IMG/VR virus record: IMGVR_UViG_3300028048_000057
Coordinates: 32,001 to 96,000 of that record
Length of the DNA: 64,000 nucleotides
Strand: one strand, 5' to 3'
Source of the DNA: a virus
Lineage: Duplodnaviria > Caudoviricetes
Shown here: positions 2,321-63,984 of the stretch, piece after piece
Layout: each line of letters begins with the position of its first letter
How positions within the stretch are numbered: position 1 is the stretch's first letter
Notes under the pieces: model-generated
The model's input: only the letters and a program-made list of their open reading frames with translations
Databases searched by the model: none
What the model was told of the DNA's origin: nothing
Program-made: the position numbers and the translations under genes

Positions 2321-5300
2321 ATGGAATTATATGATAAAGTAACTCAAGTATTAGATGATTATGGTATTCTTTATGGTGATATTGTAGAAAATGATGATGG
2401 TTCTATTAATATTGTTGGTGTTGAAGAAGATGAATGGGATGAAGTAGTTGATGCTATTAAAGAAGAATTAGGCCTTGATGTTTTAGTTCCAGATTCAGAC
2501 CATGATGAATTAGACAATGAATTAATTGTTAGAGAATCCTTAAAAGAATCTTGTGTAAAATATACAAAACCAACTAAAGAAGATATTGAAGAATGGGACC
2601 CTGATTTTGATATTTGTTGTAAAGATGTTGCTAATGGATTAGATAGTGGCTATTGGCATGGACAAACCTCAAGTGAAAGAAGTTGGGGATTAAGTGTTAA
2701 TGGTAAAGATGGAAATCAATTTAGTCCATTATTTGCAGATGTAGTTGCTTATGAAATTTCTTATCCAGTTAGAGATGGTTTATTTAGTTATAGTGGTTTA
2801 GATTGTGTTCCTAATAAATCTACATTCTCCTATATGAGTGAAGAAGATTGGAAAGATGAAGATAAATTAGAAACACTTAGAAATGATTTATTAAGTGTTG
2901 GTTGTGAAGAAGAAGAAATTAATAAATTCTTTAAAGATGAAATTAGTGAAATTGAATTCTATGTTGATTATGAAATTGATATTGATGATTTAGAAGAAGA
3001 TGAAGAAGAAACTGATGAATCTTTAAAAGAAGATAAAAGTTTTAAGGATTTAACAATTGAAGACATGTTCTTTGAAGTTTCTGGTAAGAAATTTAAAGTT
3101 TTTGATAAAAATGGTCACTTCACAAAAGAAGCATGGAAATTATATGATAAAGTAGCAAAGAAATTTGGAGATTATGATGAGTTTGATGCTCTTTGTGGTG
3201 AAGAAGGTTGTTTTGAAGATGATGAAGATATTCAATACCCTTCTAATGAATCTTTAAAAGAAGCAAAAGATGAAGATAAATTAGAAACCTTTGAAGATAA
3301 AATGGACTTCTTAGCAAAAGATGAACAAGAAGCAATTGATGGTTATGACAAAGTTATTGCTATGTTAAATCCAGATGAAGATGCTTTTGTTATTGAACAA
3401 TTAACTAAAATTAAAATTGAAGAAGAAGCACATAAAAAATATCTTGAAGATGTTAAAACTAATAAAGAGTTAGAATATACTGAACCTTTAGAACAAGATG
3501 AACTTGAAGAAGGTAAAACAAGTGCTCAAAAATATAATGATATGCTTCATAGAACTTTTGAGATGGCTAAAAAAGCCAATCTTGCTATGAAAGATTTCTT
3601 AATTAAAAATGGTGTTAGTGAAGAGGAAGCAGAAAAGTTATATCAAGATACAGGATTACATGGAAGTCCATTACAACAAAAATTAATTGACATGGGACTT
3701 AAAGATGAATTCTTTAGTAAATATGATTATAGTAAAGGTGTTATGAAAGAATCTAAACAAATTAAAGAAGCACAAGAAGGATTTACTACTTTCCTTAATT
3801 TAGAGTGTGGTGTATTATTAGAAGAAGACCACCCAGAATTTAAAGACTATTCAGTTGCTTATGACCATAAACATGGATATTATGATGAAACCTATCTCAA
3901 TTCTTTAGAAGGTGATTTAGAACTTCTTAAAGAGAGTGGATTAGATTATATCAAAAAAGGTGTTAATGGAACATATGCTATTTTAACTAAAGTAGATGTC
4001 CAAGGAAGCATGGAAGATGACTTTATTAAAGATGCTATCAAAGACATTGAAGATGGAATGTATATTGATAATAGTATTGAATTCTTAGATGGTGAACAAT
4101 TCAAAGCATCTAATGTCATTTGGAGTGCATACAAAGATGAGAATGGTGAAATCCATGAAAACTTTGTTGATACAAGTGTTACTGAAGAATGTAAAAAAGA
4201 ATTAAAAGAATACAATTTACCTAAAGATGCTAAACCATATAAAACATGTGGTGATAAAGAATATTATATTGCTACCTTTGATGATGTAGATAGAGCAATG
4301 ATGGGAAACAAAGCAACTCATACAATTGTCACTAAGAAAGTTGGTGGAGACTTTGATATGGGAAGTGCTAGTGGTTTAGACTTTAATAGTGAAGAAGAAG
4401 CCAAAAAGTGGATTGATGATGCATGCTCATTAAAAGAAGATGTTAGTGATGAAGTAGCAAGTAAATTACAAGCCTTATATGATGAAGGTAGAGTTTACTT
4501 TGACCTAGCCAAAGATAAAGATGGAGATGACTTCCTCATTGTTGATGGATGGGAAGATGTTAGAAAAATTCAAAAAGCATTAAAACCAGATTTTGAACCT
4601 AAAGATGAATATGACACAAGTGTCTTAGATGAATTATTTGACAATGGTTATCAATGGGGATTTAGAGATGAATACTCTAAATGTGATAGATGTGGAAAAG
4701 TAATTAGAACAGAAGCAGACTCTTATTCATGGGTTCCAGACTTCTTTGTAACAGAAGATGGAGAAATTATTTGTGGTGATTGTGTTAGAGAAAATCCTAA
4801 AGAATATTTAGAAACTTTATATAACAACCCAGAAAAGGCAAATACAATCTTAAGTGCTCAAGACTTAATTGATAATGGTTTTGAAAAGATTGATGGTGAC
4901 TATGAAGATGGTTGGTATGACAAACATGACTCACCAGAAGAAATCCTTAACAAGGCTTTAGAAGCACATCCTAATGGAGTATTTATTTTCCATATTAGTG
5001 GACAAGGACAATTTGCAACTCAATTTGAATTATGGGGTGCAGACCTTGACTTAGATGAATCTAAGAAAAAAGACATTAAAGAAGAAAATGAAGACCATTA
5101 TGTTGTTATCTATTATGAAGATGGTAGTCATGACATTTCTTATGGTGATTATGATAAATCTTGTAAATTTTATGATGAGTATGTAGAAAAATTAGGTTCT
5201 ACTATTGAATCAGGAAAGAAGATTGTTAAAGTTTTAAGATATAGTGAAAATGGTTGTGAAGAAAGTAAATCTTTAGAAGGATTTGAAAATATTGATGAAT

Positions 5301-49815: not shown

Positions 49816-51810
49816 ATGTTTAGTTTTAGTGAAAAATTATTAAAAATTTTAGTGATGAGACACTACTTAGTCTCATTATATCCAACTTGTAAAGAAGATG
49901 ATACTAGAAGAGCATATTTAAATGCTTATCTTTTATCTAATTTTGGTATTGTGGTAAATAGACCATATCTTTTAAGTGAGGATATGATTAAAATTATATC
50001 TACTATCTATAAATTAAATGTCCCAAAATCATTCTATGATAATCCACAAGATACTAAGTATTTTACAAGAGGCCAACTTTTAATGGAACAATTAGTTTCT
50101 TATTTCTTAGTGGAAACAGGAACAGGAATCTATGATAGAGTAGAACTCTTTAAAAAACATTTACCAGAATATGTGGTTGGTGATGAAATTAAATTAAGAA
50201 AATTCCAAATTTTATACATTGATGAAGCAAATGCAGTTTTAAAAGAAATTGCTACTTCTTTATGTGCATATACAAGACCATTCTCCTTAGAAGAGATGGA
50301 AGACTTTAAAACTCTTTATGCTAATGGTTTTGTTAGTGATGATGTAACTATTGGGTGCAAAGATAACATTATCAATATGCTTGATTTTGATGTTAGACTT
50401 GCTAGATTTTTAGATAGAAAGGATTTAGTAAAACTTTCAATTAAATTTGTAGGTGAAAAGAAAGTTGGTGTTAGAGAACAATTAAATAAATTAGATGCTA
50501 AACAAACTAATATTATTGTAAAATCTTTAGATTTGGTTAGAAATTGTCCTTTAACTAAAAAACAAGCAAAATACTTTAACAAATTACTTTCTATTTATAG
50601 TAGAGAAGAAGTACCAGTAGTGGAAGCAAATTCACCTTATAAATTTGCCATGAAATATTTGAAAGAAGGTAAGATTGTAGAAGCAGCAAGAGTGTTTTCT
50701 AAAAATGGTTCCCTTCTTGAAAGAAATTTAAGAATGCTTTTATCTAGAGCAAATCCACAAGAAGCAATGGAAATTATGAGCATGATAAAAGTTAAGAACC
50801 CAATGGTTTTATTCCAATTAGTTTCTTCATTAAAAGAAGAAGGAATTTCACCAAGAACTTTCTCATTCTTTAAGAATAATCTTGTTAAAAAACATATTGA
50901 AACTATATATGAAACTAAATGGAGAAAGTCTAGACTTAATGAATCCACAAATAAGTTTTTACATGATGCTTGTTTAGAAAAAGTATATGATTATTATAGA
51001 GGATTACCATCTTTAGGTAAAGTTTATATTAGTGATGCTTTTTATAAATTAGGAGTCCCTTCTAATACTAGTGCAAGTGGTAAAGGTATTGATGTTTTAC
51101 CAACAGGTTCTAGATTACCAATTCAAGGTAGTGCTATTAGAACCTTTGTTACTTGGAAAGGTGTATATGACATTGATGCTTCTATTTCTTTAATAGGAGA
51201 TAATAAGAAAGATTATCTTTTCTATGGTAATTATAGTGGAAAACCATTTGGTAATGATATTTTATTCTCAGGTGATTGTAGAGGTAATTCAGGTACAGAG
51301 TACTTTGACATCAAACTTGAACAAGCAAAAGCAAGAGGTTATAAATATCTTGTCTTCTCATTCCATGGATTTAATGGTAGATTAGACCAAGGTGAGATTG
51401 TTTGTGGATACCAAGACAAAACAAATCTTGAAACAAAGGCTTGGGATGCTAAAAATATTGCTTTCCAATTCAATGTTAAAGGGAATACAAGAGCATGTTT
51501 AGGTTTTGCTATTGACCTTACAACTAATGAAATGGTTATTCTTAATCTTATGGTTGAAGATGAATCTAGAGTTGTTCATAGTGGTACAGCAGATGATATG
51601 ATTTCTAAATACTTAAATTCAAGTTTCTTAGATATTAATATGGGCAATATCATTGCTTGTAGAGGTGAGGTTGTTAGTGACCCATGTGAAGCAGATGTTG
51701 TGTTTGATGATACATTTATGCCAGAAATGACTAAAGATGGAACACCAGCACAAAAAGTCATTAGAACATTTGATTTAGAAAAATTAGTTTCTATTTCAAG
51801 TGAAAAATAA
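49816..51810 (+). CDS. TROVE/Ro-like helical domain plus C-terminal TerD-like domain (putative RNA-binding)
   Basis: Helical basic N-terminal region (GSLLERNLRMLLSR); TerD-like IRTFVTW..DIDAS..FSGD..TEYFDI; adjacent Y-RNA-like element. Confidence 0.6.
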   Translation: MFSFSEKLLKILVMRHYLVSLYPTCKEDDTRRAYLNAYLLSNFGIVVNRPYLLSEDMIKIISTIYKLNVPKSFYDNPQDTKYFTRGQLLMEQLVSYFLVETGTGIYDRVELFKKHLPEYVVGDEIKLRKFQILYIDEANAVLKEIATSLCAYTRPFSLEEMEDFKTLYANGFVSDDVTIGCKDNIINMLDFDVRLARFLDRKDLVKLSIKFVGEKKVGVREQLNKLDAKQTNIIVKSLDLVRNCPLTKKQAKYFNKLLSIYSREEVPVVEANSPYKFAMKYLKEGKIVEAARVFSKNGSLLERNLRMLLSRANPQEAMEIMSMIKVKNPMVLFQLVSSLKEEGISPRTFSFFKNNLVKKHIETIYETKWRKSRLNESTNKFLHDACLEKVYDYYRGLPSLGKVYISDAFYKLGVPSNTSASGKGIDVLPTGSRLPIQGSAIRTFVTWKGVYDIDASISLIGDNKKDYLFYGNYSGKPFGNDILFSGDCRGNSGTEYFDIKLEQAKARGYKYLVFSFHGFNGRLDQGEIVCGYQDKTNLETKAWDAKNIAFQFNVKGNTRACLGFAIDLTTNEMVILNLMVEDESRVVHSGTADDMISKYLNSSFLDINMGNIIACRGEVVSDPCEADVVFDDTFMPEMTKDGTPAQKVIRTFDLEKLVSISSEK

Positions 51811-51880: not shown

Positions 51881-52002
51881 GAACCTATACTTATTTCAGA
51901 AAAATGTTAGGACAAGACTCTATCAAGGGTTCGATTCCCTTCTATCTCAAACTGAGATAGTGGTGTAATGGTAACACAGAGTCACAAACAATTAGTTAGG
52001 TC
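51881..52002 (+). ncRNA. Y RNA-like (YrlA-type) RNA with circularly permuted tRNA-like domain, motif copy 2
   Basis: GACTCT / T-arm AAGGG-TTCGATT-CCCTT / closed acceptor CTATCTCA-AAC-TGAGATAG / D-arm GTGT-AATGGTA-ACAC / AGAGTC, enclosed by ACCTATACT...AGTTAGGT. Confidence 0.85.
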
Positions 52003-52024
52003 AAAATTTAATTACATCATTAAA

Positions 52025-52100
52025 TAATAAAGTAGAGCCACTACTTATTTCAGAAGCCCTAAATTGACATTTTAGTTTATACTAGTGTGGCCTATTATTA
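52025..52100 (+). ncRNA. Bulged-helix RNA motif copy 3
   Basis: GAGCCACTACTTATTTCAG...CTAGTGTGGCC, compensatory changes relative to copies 1 and 2. Confidence 0.65.
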
Positions 52101-52126
52101 TATTAATGGTAGAAAGGAAAAAGAAC

Positions 52127-52708
52127 ATGAAGAAGAATCTATTTATGTTAATCCCTCTTTTAGGATTAATGCTTGTTGGTTGTGGTTCTCAACCTAGTGT
52201 GCATACTCATACCATGACTCATGTTGCAGGTATTGAAGCAACATATACCACAGAAGGTGTTGTTGAACATGACCATTGTACAACATGTGAAAAAGATTTT
52301 GATGCTGATGGAAATGAATTAACTTCAGTAGTTATTCCAGAATTAGAATATTCTAAAACAGTTGATGCTGTTACTTCAGACATTCAAACTACCATTGGTT
52401 CTACAGCACAAGCATTTAATTTATCAAGTTATGCACCAGAAGGAGCCGATTTAACAAACACTCAAGCACCAGAAGATTTATTAGTTGTTCCAGTATCTAT
52501 TCTTTATTCAGTTATGCCAGAATACTTATCAGTAGCAAGTGCTCATTACTATACTACTGAAGAAGATTATTGGGAAGATGAATCAGGTGATACAGTTTAT
52601 TCATTATTGCTTGTTACACCAAGAACAGAAGTAGGTGTTGAAATTGTTGGCTATGTCTACAAAGATGCACTAGTAGGTCAATATAATGTTTTTGAACCAA
52701 AAATTTAA
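52127..52708 (+). CDS. Lipoprotein (start moved to ATG 52127)
   Basis: MKKNLF...LMLVGC lipobox; His/CxxC surface-protein motif. Confidence 0.8.
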   Translation: MKKNLFMLIPLLGLMLVGCGSQPSVHTHTMTHVAGIEATYTTEGVVEHDHCTTCEKDFDADGNELTSVVIPELEYSKTVDAVTSDIQTTIGSTAQAFNLSSYAPEGADLTNTQAPEDLLVVPVSILYSVMPEYLSVASAHYYTTEEDYWEDESGDTVYSLLLVTPRTEVGVEIVGYVYKDALVGQYNVFEPKI

Positions 52709-52750
52709 TAATTAATAATGCTAAATTATAAAGGAGAATTCCAAACAATT

Positions 52751-52849
52751 ATGAAAAATATTAATAGAGCAAATTTACAATTTACACTTCAACCACTTCC
52801 TTATTGGTATGGTGTTTTGTCTATGCTCTTAAAAGTAAGTAATAATTGA
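52751..52849 (+). CDS. Putative attenuator leader peptide, 32 aa: MKNINRANLQFTLQPLPYWYGVLSMLLKVSNN
   Basis: AAGGAG at 52731; codons 52778-52810 match the six downstream tRNAs; contains the antiterminator strand. Confidence 0.8.
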   Translation: MKNINRANLQFTLQPLPYWYGVLSMLLKVSNN

Positions 52850-52894
52850 AGTAATTCTTAATTAAATTTAAAAAACTTTGGGCAGCATAGACAA
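52817..52894 (+). promoter_or_regulatory. Antiterminator helix
   Basis: TTGTCTATGCT (52817-52827) is the exact reverse complement of AGCATAGACAA (52884-52894) in the terminator 5' arm and loop. Confidence 0.8.
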
Positions 52895-52911
52895 CTATGT
52901 TGCCTTTTTTT
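52881..52911 (+). terminator. Intrinsic terminator (attenuator) 3 nt before the first tRNA
   Basis: GGCAGCATAG-ACAA-CTATGTTGCC-T7. Confidence 0.9.
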
Positions 52912-52914
52912 ATT

Positions 52915-52998
52915 GGGAAGGTAGGTAAGTGGCTAAAACCATCTGACTGTAAATCAGACGCTTAGGCTTCATGTGTTCGAATCACACCCTTCCCACCA
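52915..52998 (+). tRNA. tRNA-Tyr(GTA)
   Basis: TCTGA-CTGTAAA-TCAGA; long variable arm; encoded CCA. Confidence 0.9.
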
Positions 52999-53000
52999 AT

Positions 53001-53089
53001 GCTCCTATGTTGGAATTAGTAGACAACCTAGTTTGAGAGACTAGTGTCCATATAAGGGCGTGCAAGTGCAAGTCTTGCTAGGAGCACCA
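53001..53089 (+). tRNA. tRNA-Leu(GAG)
   Basis: CTAGT-TTGAGAG-ACTAG; long variable arm; encoded CCA. Confidence 0.9.
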
Positions 53090-53093
53090 AAAT

Positions 53094-53170
53094 TGGGATG
53101 TAGACGAATTGGTAAAGTCAAGTGGCTTTGAACCACTTATGTGAGGGTTCGAGACCTTCCATCCCAGCCA
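53094..53170 (+). tRNA. tRNA-Gln(TTG)
   Basis: AGTGG-CTTTGAA-CCACT; U1-A72, G73, CCA. Confidence 0.92.
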
Positions 53171-53172
53171 AT

Positions 53173-53246
53173 ATGGGTGTAGTTTAATGGCAGAACTATG
53201 GTCTCCAAAACCATTGATGAGAGTTCAATTCTTTCCACCCATGCCA
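53173..53246 (+). tRNA. tRNA-Trp(CCA)
   Basis: ATGGT-CTCCAAA-ACCAT; G73, CCA. Confidence 0.92.
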
Positions 53247-53250
53247 ATAT

Positions 53251-53324
53251 TGAGGGTTCTGTTAATGGTAGGCTTACGGCTTTGGAGACCGTGAATGGGG
53301 GTTCGATTCCCCCACCTTCAACCA
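53251..53324 (+). tRNA. tRNA-Pro(TGG), atypical
   Basis: ACGGC-TTTGGAG-ACCGT; perfect T-arm, weak D-stem; CCA. Confidence 0.75.
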
Positions 53325-53328
53325 TAAT

Positions 53329-53404
53329 GGGAGAGTGACCGAAGTAGTTAAGGTGCTGGTCTGAAAAACCAGATATGCTGGTGCGATTCCAACCTCTCCC
53401 ACCA
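53329..53404 (+). tRNA. tRNA-Phe(GAA)
   Basis: CTGGT-CTGAAAA-ACCAG; T-loop TGCGATT; CCA. Confidence 0.85.
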
Positions 53405-53440
53405 TTTATGCTAAATTTAAAGAAAAGAAGGAAAAATAAT

Positions 53441-54160
53441 ATGAAAAAATTAAGTGAATTATTTTGGACTTGTCACACTATAAAATATGATGTGGTAGGG
53501 GATGATGTTAATTATAAGTTTGTAGAGGAAGATTCAACTCTTTATATCTATTTCCAAGGCAGTAATAGTGTTATGGATTGGATTCGTAATTTCTTATTTC
53601 CAGCAAAACCTTATAAAGATATGGAAATTTCTTATAGAGTACATAGAGGTTTTTTAAATGCTTGGAAACAAGTAGAAGATATTGTAATAGATAAAATTCA
53701 AGAAAAAACAACTAAATTAATGTTTAATAAATATAAAAAGAAATATGAAAATAAAGATATATTCAAGTTTAAAAAGATTATTGTAGTTGGATATTCTCAT
53801 GGTGCAGCACTTGCTGGACTTTGTCATGAATGTGTTTGGTATTGGAGACCTGACCTTAGAGAAGATGGTCTTGAGGGTTATGGATTTGAAGCACCAAGAT
53901 TCTATGCTGGATGGCATGTTAAAAAAGCATTAAAAGAAAGATGGTCTAAATTTAAAGTTATTAGATGTAATAATGATTTAGTTACACATTGTCCACCATG
54001 GATTCTTAGATTTATACATGTTACTAAAGACATCCTTAAAATAAAAGGAGACACTAAATTAGTGGATAAGTGGTACATACCAAAATGTGTAAAATCACAC
54101 TTCCCACAAGTAGTAATGGATGGGTTAACAAAATTAGAAAATGAAGAGGCTAACAAATAG
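53441..54160 (+). CDS. Class 3 lipase-like alpha/beta hydrolase (start moved to ATG 53441)
   Basis: FQGS...DW, VHRGF, GYSHG nucleophile elbow, FEAPR, DLVTHCPP, C-terminal His. Confidence 0.9.
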   Translation: MKKLSELFWTCHTIKYDVVGDDVNYKFVEEDSTLYIYFQGSNSVMDWIRNFLFPAKPYKDMEISYRVHRGFLNAWKQVEDIVIDKIQEKTTKLMFNKYKKKYENKDIFKFKKIIVVGYSHGAALAGLCHECVWYWRPDLREDGLEGYGFEAPRFYAGWHVKKALKERWSKFKVIRCNNDLVTHCPPWILRFIHVTKDILKIKGDTKLVDKWYIPKCVKSHFPQVVMDGLTKLENEEANK

Positions 54161-62550: not shown

Positions 62551-63984
62551 ATGTTTTATTTAAATAAATTTATTAAGATTCCTAATAAAAGAGTAGAGGA
62601 TGCTCTTTTTTGGCTTTATCCTTATTTTAAAGATGCTAAAAAAGAACTATACCTTGTAGGTGGATGTGTTAGAGATATGCTCTTAGGTAAGGAACCTAAA
62701 GATTATGATTTTTGCACTAATGTATCTCCAGAAGAAGTTAAACAAATTTTAAGTAAAAATTCTAGATATAGTTTTATTGACACTGGATTAAAGCATGGTA
62801 CAATTACAGTTCATGATAAATGTTTAGATTTATTTTTTGAAATTACTACTTACAGAGTTGATGGTGCATATGAAGATAATAGACATCCAATTAAAGTTAG
62901 TTGGACTTCTAGTTTAGAAGAAGACCTTAGAAGGAGAGACTTTACTATTAATTCATTTGCATATGACCCTTTAGAAAAAGAATTGGTTATGTTAGATGAA
63001 ACTTATCTATATGACCTTAAATTAGGAATCATTAGATGTGTTGGAAATCCTATTGAAAGATTTAATGAAGATGCCTTAAGAATGCTTAGAGCAATTAGGT
63101 TTAGTGCTCAATTAGGGTTCACTATTGAGAAAGAAACTTATAATGCAATTATTCAAGGTGCTCCTCTTATTCAATACATATCTAAAGAAAGAATTAGAGA
63201 TGAATTAACTAAAATTCTTTTGAGTGATAATCCTCAAATGTTAGAATTGTTTAGTTTAACTACATTAGAACATCATGTATTTGAATCAAATACTCCTTAT
63301 ATTGAATCTATGTTACAATGTGAACATGAGAACCCATGGCATTATACAGATGTATTTCATCACACAATGGATGTAATTAAACATCTTCCAAAAGATTTTG
63401 ATTTAAGGTGGAGTGCTTTAATGCATGATATGGGAAAACCTAAAGTAAAGAAACAAAGACCACAAGGGCCTATTGGACACATGGTTTATTATGGGCACCC
63501 AGATATTTCAGAAAAGATTGCTTTAGAAATTATGGAAATTTTAAAATTCTCCAATGAATCTAAGGAAAAAATTAGAAAATTTGTTAAATATCATGACTAC
63601 CCTTTAGATGAAGTTAGTGATGTAAAATTTAAAAAGATGATTATTAATATTGGCCAAGATAATTTTATTGATTTTCTTAAATTAAGAGAAGCAGATGCTT
63701 TAGCACATAGATTACTTAAAAGCACACAATATATTATTGATGCACCAAGTATTGTTAAAGATAGATATATGAAAATAGTTATGAATAAAGAACCTTTAAC
63801 TTTAAAAGACCTTGTTATTAATGGGAATGATTTAAAGAAATTTAAAGTTAGTGGAATTCATATAGGTCAGTGTTTAAATAGATTATTAGATAGAGTTTTA
63901 GAAGACCCTGATTTAAATAAAAAAGAAACATTATTAAATATAGCCAAAAGTTACTTTTGGAAATTAGGTTTATTGGAGGATTAA
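62551..63984 (+). CDS. cca: Class II tRNA nucleotidyltransferase (CCA-adding/poly(A) polymerase family) with HD domain
   Basis: VGGCVRD, DYD, RRDFTIN, EDALRMLR, ERIRDEL, MHDMGK. Confidence 0.9.
   Translation: MFYLNKFIKIPNKRVEDALFWLYPYFKDAKKELYLVGGCVRDMLLGKEPKDYDFCTNVSPEEVKQILSKNSRYSFIDTGLKHGTITVHDKCLDLFFEITTYRVDGAYEDNRHPIKVSWTSSLEEDLRRRDFTINSFAYDPLEKELVMLDETYLYDLKLGIIRCVGNPIERFNEDALRMLRAIRFSAQLGFTIEKETYNAIIQGAPLIQYISKERIRDELTKILLSDNPQMLELFSLTTLEHHVFESNTPYIESMLQCEHENPWHYTDVFHHTMDVIKHLPKDFDLRWSALMHDMGKPKVKKQRPQGPIGHMVYYGHPDISEKIALEIMEILKFSNESKEKIRKFVKYHDYPLDEVSDVKFKKMIINIGQDNFIDFLKLREADALAHRLLKSTQYIIDAPSIVKDRYMKIVMNKEPLTLKDLVINGNDLKKFKVSGIHIGQCLNRLLDRVLEDPDLNKKETLLNIAKSYFWKLGLLED

Follow-up and report, generated by a model that had tools for sequence, protein, structure and literature searches.

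The DNA analysed here, referred to as the window, is a stretch of 64,000 nucleotides comprising bases 32001-96000 of a 161,442-bp virus record in IMG/VR (IMGVR_UViG_3300028048_000057); positions are in window numbering unless marked "genome" or given with a locus identifier (L0xx). The GC content is 28.5%, and the whole genome carries 25 tRNA genes spread over several clusters. One of these clusters, an array of six tRNA genes, is preceded by a short open reading frame (ORF) and an intrinsic terminator, and these features form the element examined in this study (Table 1). The genes around the element all lie on the + strand, in the order 664-aa conserved protein, lipoprotein, attenuator element, lipase; across 52751-52915, no ORF of at least 25 aa was found on the opposite strand. 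An original prediction, made from the letters of the window, had read this arrangement as an attenuator that senses the very tRNAs it controls, and the promoter-like motif, the Shine-Dalgarno (SD) sequence AAGGAG and the 32-codon leader ORF on which it was built are all present where it had placed them. The leader peptide matches no Pfam family. The source is an uncultured low-GC T4-like phage, an assignment drawn from the T4-type portal, prohead protease and Gp23 genes found in relatives.

Table 1. Features of the tRNA array locus and of a second cassette in the same genome.
Feature	Position	Strand	Remarks
Conserved 664-aa protein	49816-51810	+	function unknown; no Pfam match, only a PHROG of unknown function
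Predicted lipoprotein, 193 aa	52127-52708	+	
Promoter-like motif TGCTAAATT	52719-52727	+	resembles an extended -10 element
SD sequence AAGGAG	52731-52736	+	14 nt from the ATG
Leader ORF	ATG 52751, TGA 52847-52849	+	32 codons and TGA; peptide MKNINRANLQFTLQPLPYWYGVLSMLLKVSNN
Region 1	52765-52789	+	predicted anti-antiterminator or pause helix, formed with region 2 when the leader is untranslated; lowest-energy full-leader fold
Sensor run, codons 10-20 (QFTLQPLPYWY)	52778-52810	+	10/11 codons cognate to the six downstream tRNAs
Region 2, antiterminator 5' strand	52817-52836	+	core TTGTCTATGCT (codons 23-26), extended to AAAGT
Region 3, terminator 5' arm and loop	52875-52894	+	common to antiterminator and terminator
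Intrinsic terminator	52880-52911	+	11-pair stem 52880-52905, loop ACAA, T-run 52905-52911 (7 T)
tRNA array	52915-53404	+	Tyr-GUA, Leu-GAG, Gln-UUG, Trp-CCA, Pro-UGG, Phe-GAA (ARAGORN, Infernal)
Class-3 lipase	53441-54160	+	
Second cassette (outside the window)	genome 140877-141080 (L038 278-481)		TGCTAAATT at genome 140877-140885, SD sequence, leader at 140905-141012, terminator

The codons of the sensor run (CAA TTT ACA CTT CAA CCA CTT CCT TAT TGG TAT) correspond to the tRNAs encoded behind them. Nine are decoded through standard wobble by Gln-UUG, Phe-GAA, Leu-GAG, Pro-UGG, Tyr-GUA and Trp-CCA, a tenth, CCT, requires four-way wobble at U34, and ACA is without a matching tRNA in the array. 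The claim that ten of the eleven codons are read by the six array tRNAs, with all six represented, was thus borne out, as was the observation that both Leu codons are CTT, matching Leu-GAG; TTA makes up 64% of Leu codons, and CTT together with CTC 23%. Array-cognate codons make up 18% of codons in long ORFs, and among all 11-codon windows in the six frames of the whole genome (n = 322,820) just two reach 10/11 cognate codons, the leader run being the sole one that also covers all six tRNAs. The codon match exceeds chance. The unmatched ACA had been taken to predict a tRNA-Thr(UGU) lost or encoded elsewhere; such a gene is present at genome 142128, although in a genome with 25 tRNAs this was a weak prediction.

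Close relatives of the element were found neither among GenBank phages nor in IMG/VR: a DNA search of GenBank phages returned single tRNAs only, a protein search with the 664-aa protein gave one remote match, and in IMG/VR both the lipoprotein and the 664-aa protein are without close relatives. In ENA and Logan metagenome assemblies, both the lipase and the 664-aa protein have many homologs. The set of homologs compared below (n = 7) consists of the window and six syntenic loci with leader, terminator and array, namely L024, L006, L010, L021, L033 and L022; the last, a JGI contig, stops after the first tRNA, and L034 is a duplicate of L033. Identity of the 664-aa protein to that of the window is 88% in L024, 69% in L006 and L010, 64% in L021 and L033, and 65% (C-terminal half) in L022. 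Other candidates were set aside: the lipase relatives L003-L005 are not syntenic, L035 and L036 (from an IMG/VR profile search) have no array at the site, L011-L015 (found by pattern-matching the leader and terminator motifs) are chance matches within an unrelated gene, L023 (from a JGI metagenome scan) is without an array, and L025, L032, L008 and L017 have none beside the marker genes.

An ATG-started ORF of 25-32 codons, its frame conserved through in-frame indels, is found in all seven homologs, each time with an SD-like GGAG or AAGG 7-14 nt 5' of the ATG. All share TTGTCT(A/G)TG in the same frame, encoding Leu-Ser-Met/Val. The terminator in the window ends 3 nt 5' of tRNA-Tyr, and the spacers within the array are 2-4 nt, leaving no space for an internal promoter. 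Across the seven homologs the gap between the T-run and the first tRNA is 3-14 nt, and spacers in the relatives' arrays are 2-5 nt. These gaps and spacers are too short for a promoter, leaving readthrough of the terminator as the arrays' sole means of expression.

The homologs fall into two types, in which the codon content of the leader changes together with the content of the array, an outcome in favour of the original prediction, which had proposed this comparison. Type A arrays (the window, L024, L006 and L010) carry Tyr, Leu-GAG, Gln, Trp, Pro and Phe tRNAs, with Leu-UAG besides in the three relatives and also Leu-CAA in L010, and the leader runs of these relatives are drawn from Q, F, L, P, Y and W; the type A leaders read LQFTLQPLPYWYG, LQFTLQPYPFWYG and LTQQYTLQPWFYPHG. 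Type B arrays (L021 and L033) carry Leu-GAG, -UAG, -UAA and -CAA, Pro, Val-UAC, Val-GAC and Phe, and lack Gln, Trp and Tyr tRNAs; the type B leader runs use V, L, P and F only (VLFVLLPVLPLFVG and LFVLLPLPVVF in L021 and L033, and LFVLLPLVPVF in L022), with zero Gln, Trp or Tyr codons and 3-5 Val codons in each leader. Leaders match an array of their own type at 10-13 of about 20 codons, versus 5-8 for the other type. In L021 as many as 13/13 consecutive codons are cognate, with no equivalent window in the reference genome, and its five Leu codons (CTA, TTG, TTA and CTC being used) sample all four Leu isoacceptors (p about 0.04). TTG replaces TTA only in L010, the sole type A array with Leu-CAA. 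The two leader types can still be aligned (TTT ACA CTT CAA CCA in type A versus TTT GTA TTG TTA CCT in type B), so that the run seems to have been retuned by point substitutions. In the type A arrays, Infernal recovered two tRNAs that ARAGORN had missed, and inspection by eye assigned both as Phe-GAA. A gene resembling tRNA-Tyr(GUA), whose T-loop (GGTGGTGCAACTCCATC) is aberrant, lies at L006 1555-1640, L024 5972-6057 and L010 2252-2337, and its acceptor stem covaries between loci (GGGAGAG/CTCTCCC versus GGGTAGG/CCTACCC).

A further line of evidence concerns the alternative structures of the leader RNA. Six nucleotides past codon 20, TTGTCTATGCT (52817-52827) is the exact complement of AGCATAGACAA (52884-52894), and further inward AAAGT (52832-52836) is complementary to ACTTT (52875-52879); the antiterminator complementarity, its inward extension and the terminator abutting tRNA-Tyr, all part of the original prediction, were confirmed. 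The leader region folds with z = -4.0 relative to shuffles. The duplex of regions 2 and 3 (2:3) has an energy of -20.8 kcal/mol in the window, a value reached by 0/1000 shuffles, and of -14.8 to -22.2 kcal/mol across the homologs, where shuffles of region 2 match it in 0-2.5% of trials. The competing duplex of regions 1 and 2 (1:2) amounts to -12.8 kcal/mol in the window and -11 to -15 kcal/mol across the homologs. When the full untranslated leader is folded, the 1:2 helix together with the terminator is the lowest-energy structure in all seven homologs; folding only the segment that begins with region 2 and runs through the T-run makes the antiterminator the minimum in four of the seven and places it within 1.0-3.6 kcal/mol of the minimum in the other three. 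Compared with the terminator hairpin alone, the antiterminator is at -20.6 versus -17.6 kcal/mol in the window, -25.0 versus -18.6 in L024, -18.2 versus -13.1 in L010 and -18.4 versus -14.6 in L033.

These pairings have been maintained through sequence change. The complementary segments TTGTCTATG and CATAGACAA are kept in the six metagenomic relatives with compensatory changes, and the 2:3 pairing spans the full 5' arm of the terminator despite differences among the arms themselves (GGGCAG, GGGTAG, GGATGA, GGGATGG, GGGCA and GGCAG). In an alignment of the seven sequences, 94.7% of cells in the antiterminator are paired, versus 24-53% when the partner is slid, and two pairs show compensatory double changes: CTATG/CATAG to CTGTG/CACAG in L033 (A-U to G-C), and GCT/AGC to GCC/GGC in L021 and L010 (U-A to C-G). 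The terminator alignment is paired in 93.9% of cells, with four pairs covarying by double changes. The covariation of antiterminator with terminator that had been expected in related phages is thus seen. TTTGTCT and TG are invariant in all seven homologs, and TTG TCT is fixed even at its synonymous positions in a peptide that otherwise diverges, which implies a constraint at the nucleotide rather than the protein level; the tolerance of G-U pairs further argues that this constraint acts on RNA rather than DNA. An Rfam scan placed only tRNAs above threshold, the matches to SpF39 and YrlA being weak and below gathering, and within 52000-54000 the T-box and other riboswitch models gave no match at E <= 1.

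A second cassette of the same design lies elsewhere in the genome. Its leader, a 35-codon ORF (MRTILTIKSIELVTLEKHICEDNVIFVHGQDTSYE), is followed by a terminator 9 nt before tRNA-Glu and by an array that continues with Lys, Lys, Ile, Thr, Leu-UAA, Asn, Asp, Cys, Val, His and Ser. Between tRNA-Glu and the first tRNA-Lys, an endonuclease-like ORF (genome 141204-141860) is inserted. Codons 3-25 of this leader, 23 in succession, are all cognate to the tRNAs behind it; in the six frames of the genome there are two runs of at least 23 such codons, against a background of 0.60. Here GCATGGTCAAG, in the 3' part of the leader, pairs with CTTGGCTATGC in the 5' arm of the terminator as an antiterminator that is the lowest-energy structure of the sub-transcript, and the cassette folds with z = -6.9 relative to shuffles. 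As the second leader is unrelated in sequence to the first, it provides independent support.

The position of a translating ribosome was modelled by masking. In an analysis of the nascent transcript, which replaced masks applied at equilibrium and in which the transcript ends at the terminator loop (region 3 having emerged and region 4 not), the 2:3 helix forms with the ribosomal A site at codons 2 to 18-19 and is lost at codons 20-30, because the ribosome there covers region 2. The end of the sensor run coincides with the onset of this covering in six of the seven homologs, the exception being L010, in which 2:3 is lost already from codon 15. The dependence on ribosome position that the original prediction foresaw accordingly appears as a coherent geometry in the nascent transcript, and is absent at full-length equilibrium.

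The motif upstream of the leader, TGCTAAATT (often in the form TGCTAAATTtAttGAtAA), has 29 copies in + orientation in the 161-kb genome and a single one in the opposite orientation, most of them 15-45 nt 5' of an SD sequence and ATG. Copies in the window include those at 52719 and at 53409, the latter directly after the array and before the lipase gene, and the motif is kept 5' of the leader in L024, L006 and L010. It is probably a phage-specific promoter element, to judge from this placement. At several copies the SD sequence is so near that a transcript would begin at or within it.

Taken together, these features most likely represent a transcription attenuator of the ribosome-mediated (leader-peptide) kind, which controls readthrough into a phage tRNA array by sensing the decoding speed of the codons served by that array, a reading in which we have considerable though not complete confidence. 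What is observed here is the anatomy of the element and its conservation, covariation both within its alternative helices and between leader codons and array content, and the second cassette. From these observations we infer translation of the leader, stalling, a kinetic choice between helices, a start of transcription and a physiological trigger along the following lines. Transcription would begin 5' of the leader, probably at TGCTAAATT, and the 32-codon leader would be translated, its codons 10-20 requiring the six tRNA species encoded directly 3'. With fast decoding, the ribosome would occupy region 2 (codons 20 to about 30) while the polymerase makes regions 3 and 4; with region 2 covered, the terminator hairpin would form and transcription would end 3 nt before tRNA-Tyr. 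Slow decoding at any codon of the run, whether the tRNA is scarce, uncharged or damaged, would hold the ribosome 5' of region 2, leaving that region free to pair with the emerging terminator 5' arm and loop; no terminator would then form, and the polymerase would read through into the array, from whose transcript the tRNAs would be excised. The new tRNAs would relieve the stall, constituting a direct negative feedback on the decoding capacity for these codons. The simplest physiological role of such a circuit would be supply-and-demand feedback for phage-encoded tRNAs.

Several observations weigh against this interpretation. At full-length equilibrium with ribosome masks, the terminator prevails at nearly every ribosome position in most homologs, and any switch must therefore be kinetic; the classical trp leader is probably likewise terminator-favoured at equilibrium. 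Without a ribosome, the nascent transcript favours 2:3 over 1:2 in six of the seven homologs, which makes 1:2 a weak anti-antiterminator and means that an untranslated leader might read through; region 1 and its helix are the weakest part of the model. In the window, L024 and L006, a ribosome that has reached the stop codon leaves region 2 exposed again, and one stalled on the last codon of the run would itself cover this region. The spacing from SD sequence to ATG is long in the same three homologs (14 nt), and if TGCTAAATT is a -10 element, the leader transcript would begin within or beside the SD sequence. The seven homologs represent two leader/array types only, with few phylogenetically independent contrasts, and the Tyr-like tRNA of L006, L024 and L010 is called by neither ARAGORN nor Infernal at the gathering threshold. 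The matching of codons is also not universal. A Met-Ser-Met array (genome 117696) has a 61-aa ORF upstream that is not codon-matched; cassette 1 of L033, with 28/36 codons cognate against a background of 0.67, is not significant (p = 0.11); and the array of L026 has its own promoter. The latter belongs to a group of loci (L026-L031) with a different array and a TTGATC-17-TATAAT promoter downstream of a terminator. A 41-aa ORF upstream in that group contains the run GGA TTA TCA ATA AGA, matching five tRNAs; it was not counted, because A-ending codons are common in AT-rich DNA and no antiterminator was found.

Other explanations can be set against the same evidence. The ORF might encode a small, partly hydrophobic conserved protein with a terminator of its own, the tRNAs being expressed by leaky or factor-driven readthrough (for example, timed processive antitermination) and the codon match being coincidental. 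Terminators do abut the first tRNA also at genome 117696 and 141080, such that setting tRNAs right behind a terminator is a habit of this genome, and the type B leaders (LFVLLPLVPVF) resemble membrane segments; we nevertheless find this account quite improbable, since the codon match has no equal in the genome and leaders change when arrays do, the sole invariant part of the peptide coincides with antiterminator nucleotides whose synonymous positions are frozen, 2:3 complementarity survives the differences between terminator stems by way of compensatory and G-U changes, and the peptide matches no known family. An element acting purely as RNA, with an untranslated ORF and a 2:3 helix that directs processing of the tRNA precursor or stabilises it (such as an RNase III site or a 5' protective structure), would account for the length of that helix, up to about 20 pairs with bulges, and for its being favoured in the nascent transcript even without a ribosome. 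It would provide no reason to track the tRNA content of the array codon by codon, and it leaves the open frame of 25-32 codons, with its ATG, SD-like sequence and in-frame indels, to be kept by chance in seven AT-rich homologs; by our own estimate, with this base composition about 8% of random codons are stops, giving a single 30-codon open frame a chance of roughly 0.07. We regard it as highly improbable.

A different question is what an attenuator of this anatomy would be for. The original prediction cast it as an on-demand sensor for counter-defence, supplying replacement tRNAs when host tRNAs are cleaved or depleted by anticodon nucleases, PARIS-type systems or toxin tRNases; its core, a leader-peptide attenuator with sensor codons matching the tRNAs it controls, is strongly supported in our analysis, and the counter-defence role is speculative. 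The anatomy would be identical under either role. The phage also invests in the repair of tRNAs. Its genes for this comprise a CCA-adding enzyme with an HD domain (62551-63984, + strand) and a 754-aa fusion of P-loop kinase, metallophosphoesterase and T4-type Rnl1 RNA ligase (genome 96250-98514; L037 751-3015), to which a Y RNA-like tRNA mimic 900 nt upstream, described below, may be added. In T4, the activities of Pnk and Rnl1 reverse the damage caused by PrrC. Such genes are circumstantial support for a role in counter-defence; however, the six sensed tRNAs have no tie to known nuclease targets, the classical ones (tRNA-Lys, Glu, Thr, fMet and others) being mostly outside the array, and a mismatch between codon demand and host tRNA supply, or host shut-off, would explain the same circuit. 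The second cassette, moreover, senses twelve other tRNAs, which suggests a general control of supply over a response to one form of attack. We therefore consider the counter-defence role unlikely. Equally speculative is the broader proposal that an evolvable, per-codon decoding sensor gates each tRNA block and, together with the repair genes and the Y RNA-like mimic, would let the phage respond inducibly, by "repair and replace", when host tRNAs are depleted or attacked by tRNA-cleaving defences.

Some further RNA features of the region and its relatives were recorded. A circularly permuted tRNA-like module lies at 51883-52000 (+ strand), just 3' of the conserved 664-aa gene, with copies at L010 about 1560-1650, L025 about 2760-2860 and L022 about 3490-3590. 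Its parts run in the order T-arm, acceptor 3' strand, short loop, acceptor 5' strand and D-arm, closed by a GAGTC/GACTC stem, with the motif AGARCYTATACTTATTTC before it and AGTTAGGYC after it; the acceptor-like stem covaries among relatives, and the match to the Rfam YrlA (Y RNA-like) model is weak (22.4 bits, E = 0.016, below gathering). Fragments of tRNA genes, lone 3' halves with T-arm and CCA end, occur at L033 7243-7386 and at 51890-52060 in the window, where they sit among intact tRNAs, 3' of copies of the motif CTTATTTC; they may represent either leftovers of rearrangement or additional permuted modules. A ROOL RNA (Rfam RF03087, 216.9 bits) lies at L021 4385-4972, about 200 nt 3' of the lipase gene, and none was found in the window. 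The related 158-kb phage contig L016 carries a tmRNA gene (834-1220) within a block of 19 tRNAs upstream of its lipase gene. At L008 3001-3720 a lipase homolog yields the database protein only when TGA is read as Trp, and this relative is probably recoded.

Discussions of phage tRNA genes usually treat them as a constant supplement to codon usage or as spares against tRNA-targeting defences, and to our knowledge little has been established about the control of their expression. If the attenuator reading is correct, the phage would gauge codon by codon whether translation lacks the tRNAs that it has on offer, and would transcribe them only then. A textbook mechanism would thereby acquire a new kind of target gene, with leaders retuned by point mutation as the tRNA content of arrays grows or shrinks (for example from ACA/CTT/CAA to GTA/TTG/TTA when the two types are compared). 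The element would also serve as a compact sensor of specific tRNA supply that lends itself to design. A search of the published literature found no description of attenuation of tRNA genes, in agreement with the original prediction, to which no described attenuator of a phage tRNA array was known. What is new is the choice of tRNA genes as the target, the direct feedback that results, the selection of codons at the level of isoacceptors, and the phage setting.

The term "multi-input sensor", by which the original prediction described the element, overstates its novelty, since multivalent attenuators are classical in the amino-acid operons of enterobacteria, the ilvGMEDA leader responding to Ile, Leu and Val and the thr leader to Thr and Ile. 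The likeness to these systems is close: a short leader ORF with regulatory codons for several amino acids, overlapping 1:2, 2:3 and 3:4 pairings of which the last is an intrinsic terminator, and a readout by the position of the ribosome relative to region 2, with type B leaders resembling even the hydrophobic ilv leader. The genes regulated there encode biosynthetic enzymes, whereas here they encode tRNAs, a product that would directly relieve the stall; in addition, the phage element would sense six to twelve decoding species, with codons chosen at the isoacceptor level (CTT for Leu-GAG, or four Leu codons for four Leu tRNAs). The leaders trpL, hisL, leuL, pheL and pheM, the last upstream of the aminoacyl-tRNA synthetase genes pheST, are attenuators for single amino acids that follow the same three-helix logic, and in pheM-pheST, as proposed here, attenuation governs a component of the translation apparatus according to the supply of charged tRNA. 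They differ in reading one amino acid through repeated codons, where the phage run samples each tRNA once or twice in mixed order, and in that the output of the phage element is the tRNA itself. T-boxes likewise set a choice between terminator and antiterminator by the status of a tRNA. They do so by binding a single uncharged tRNA, which the specifier codon and the T-box bulge recognise directly, and no translation is involved. The phage element, in contrast, contains a conserved ORF and matches no T-box model, and is not a T-box.

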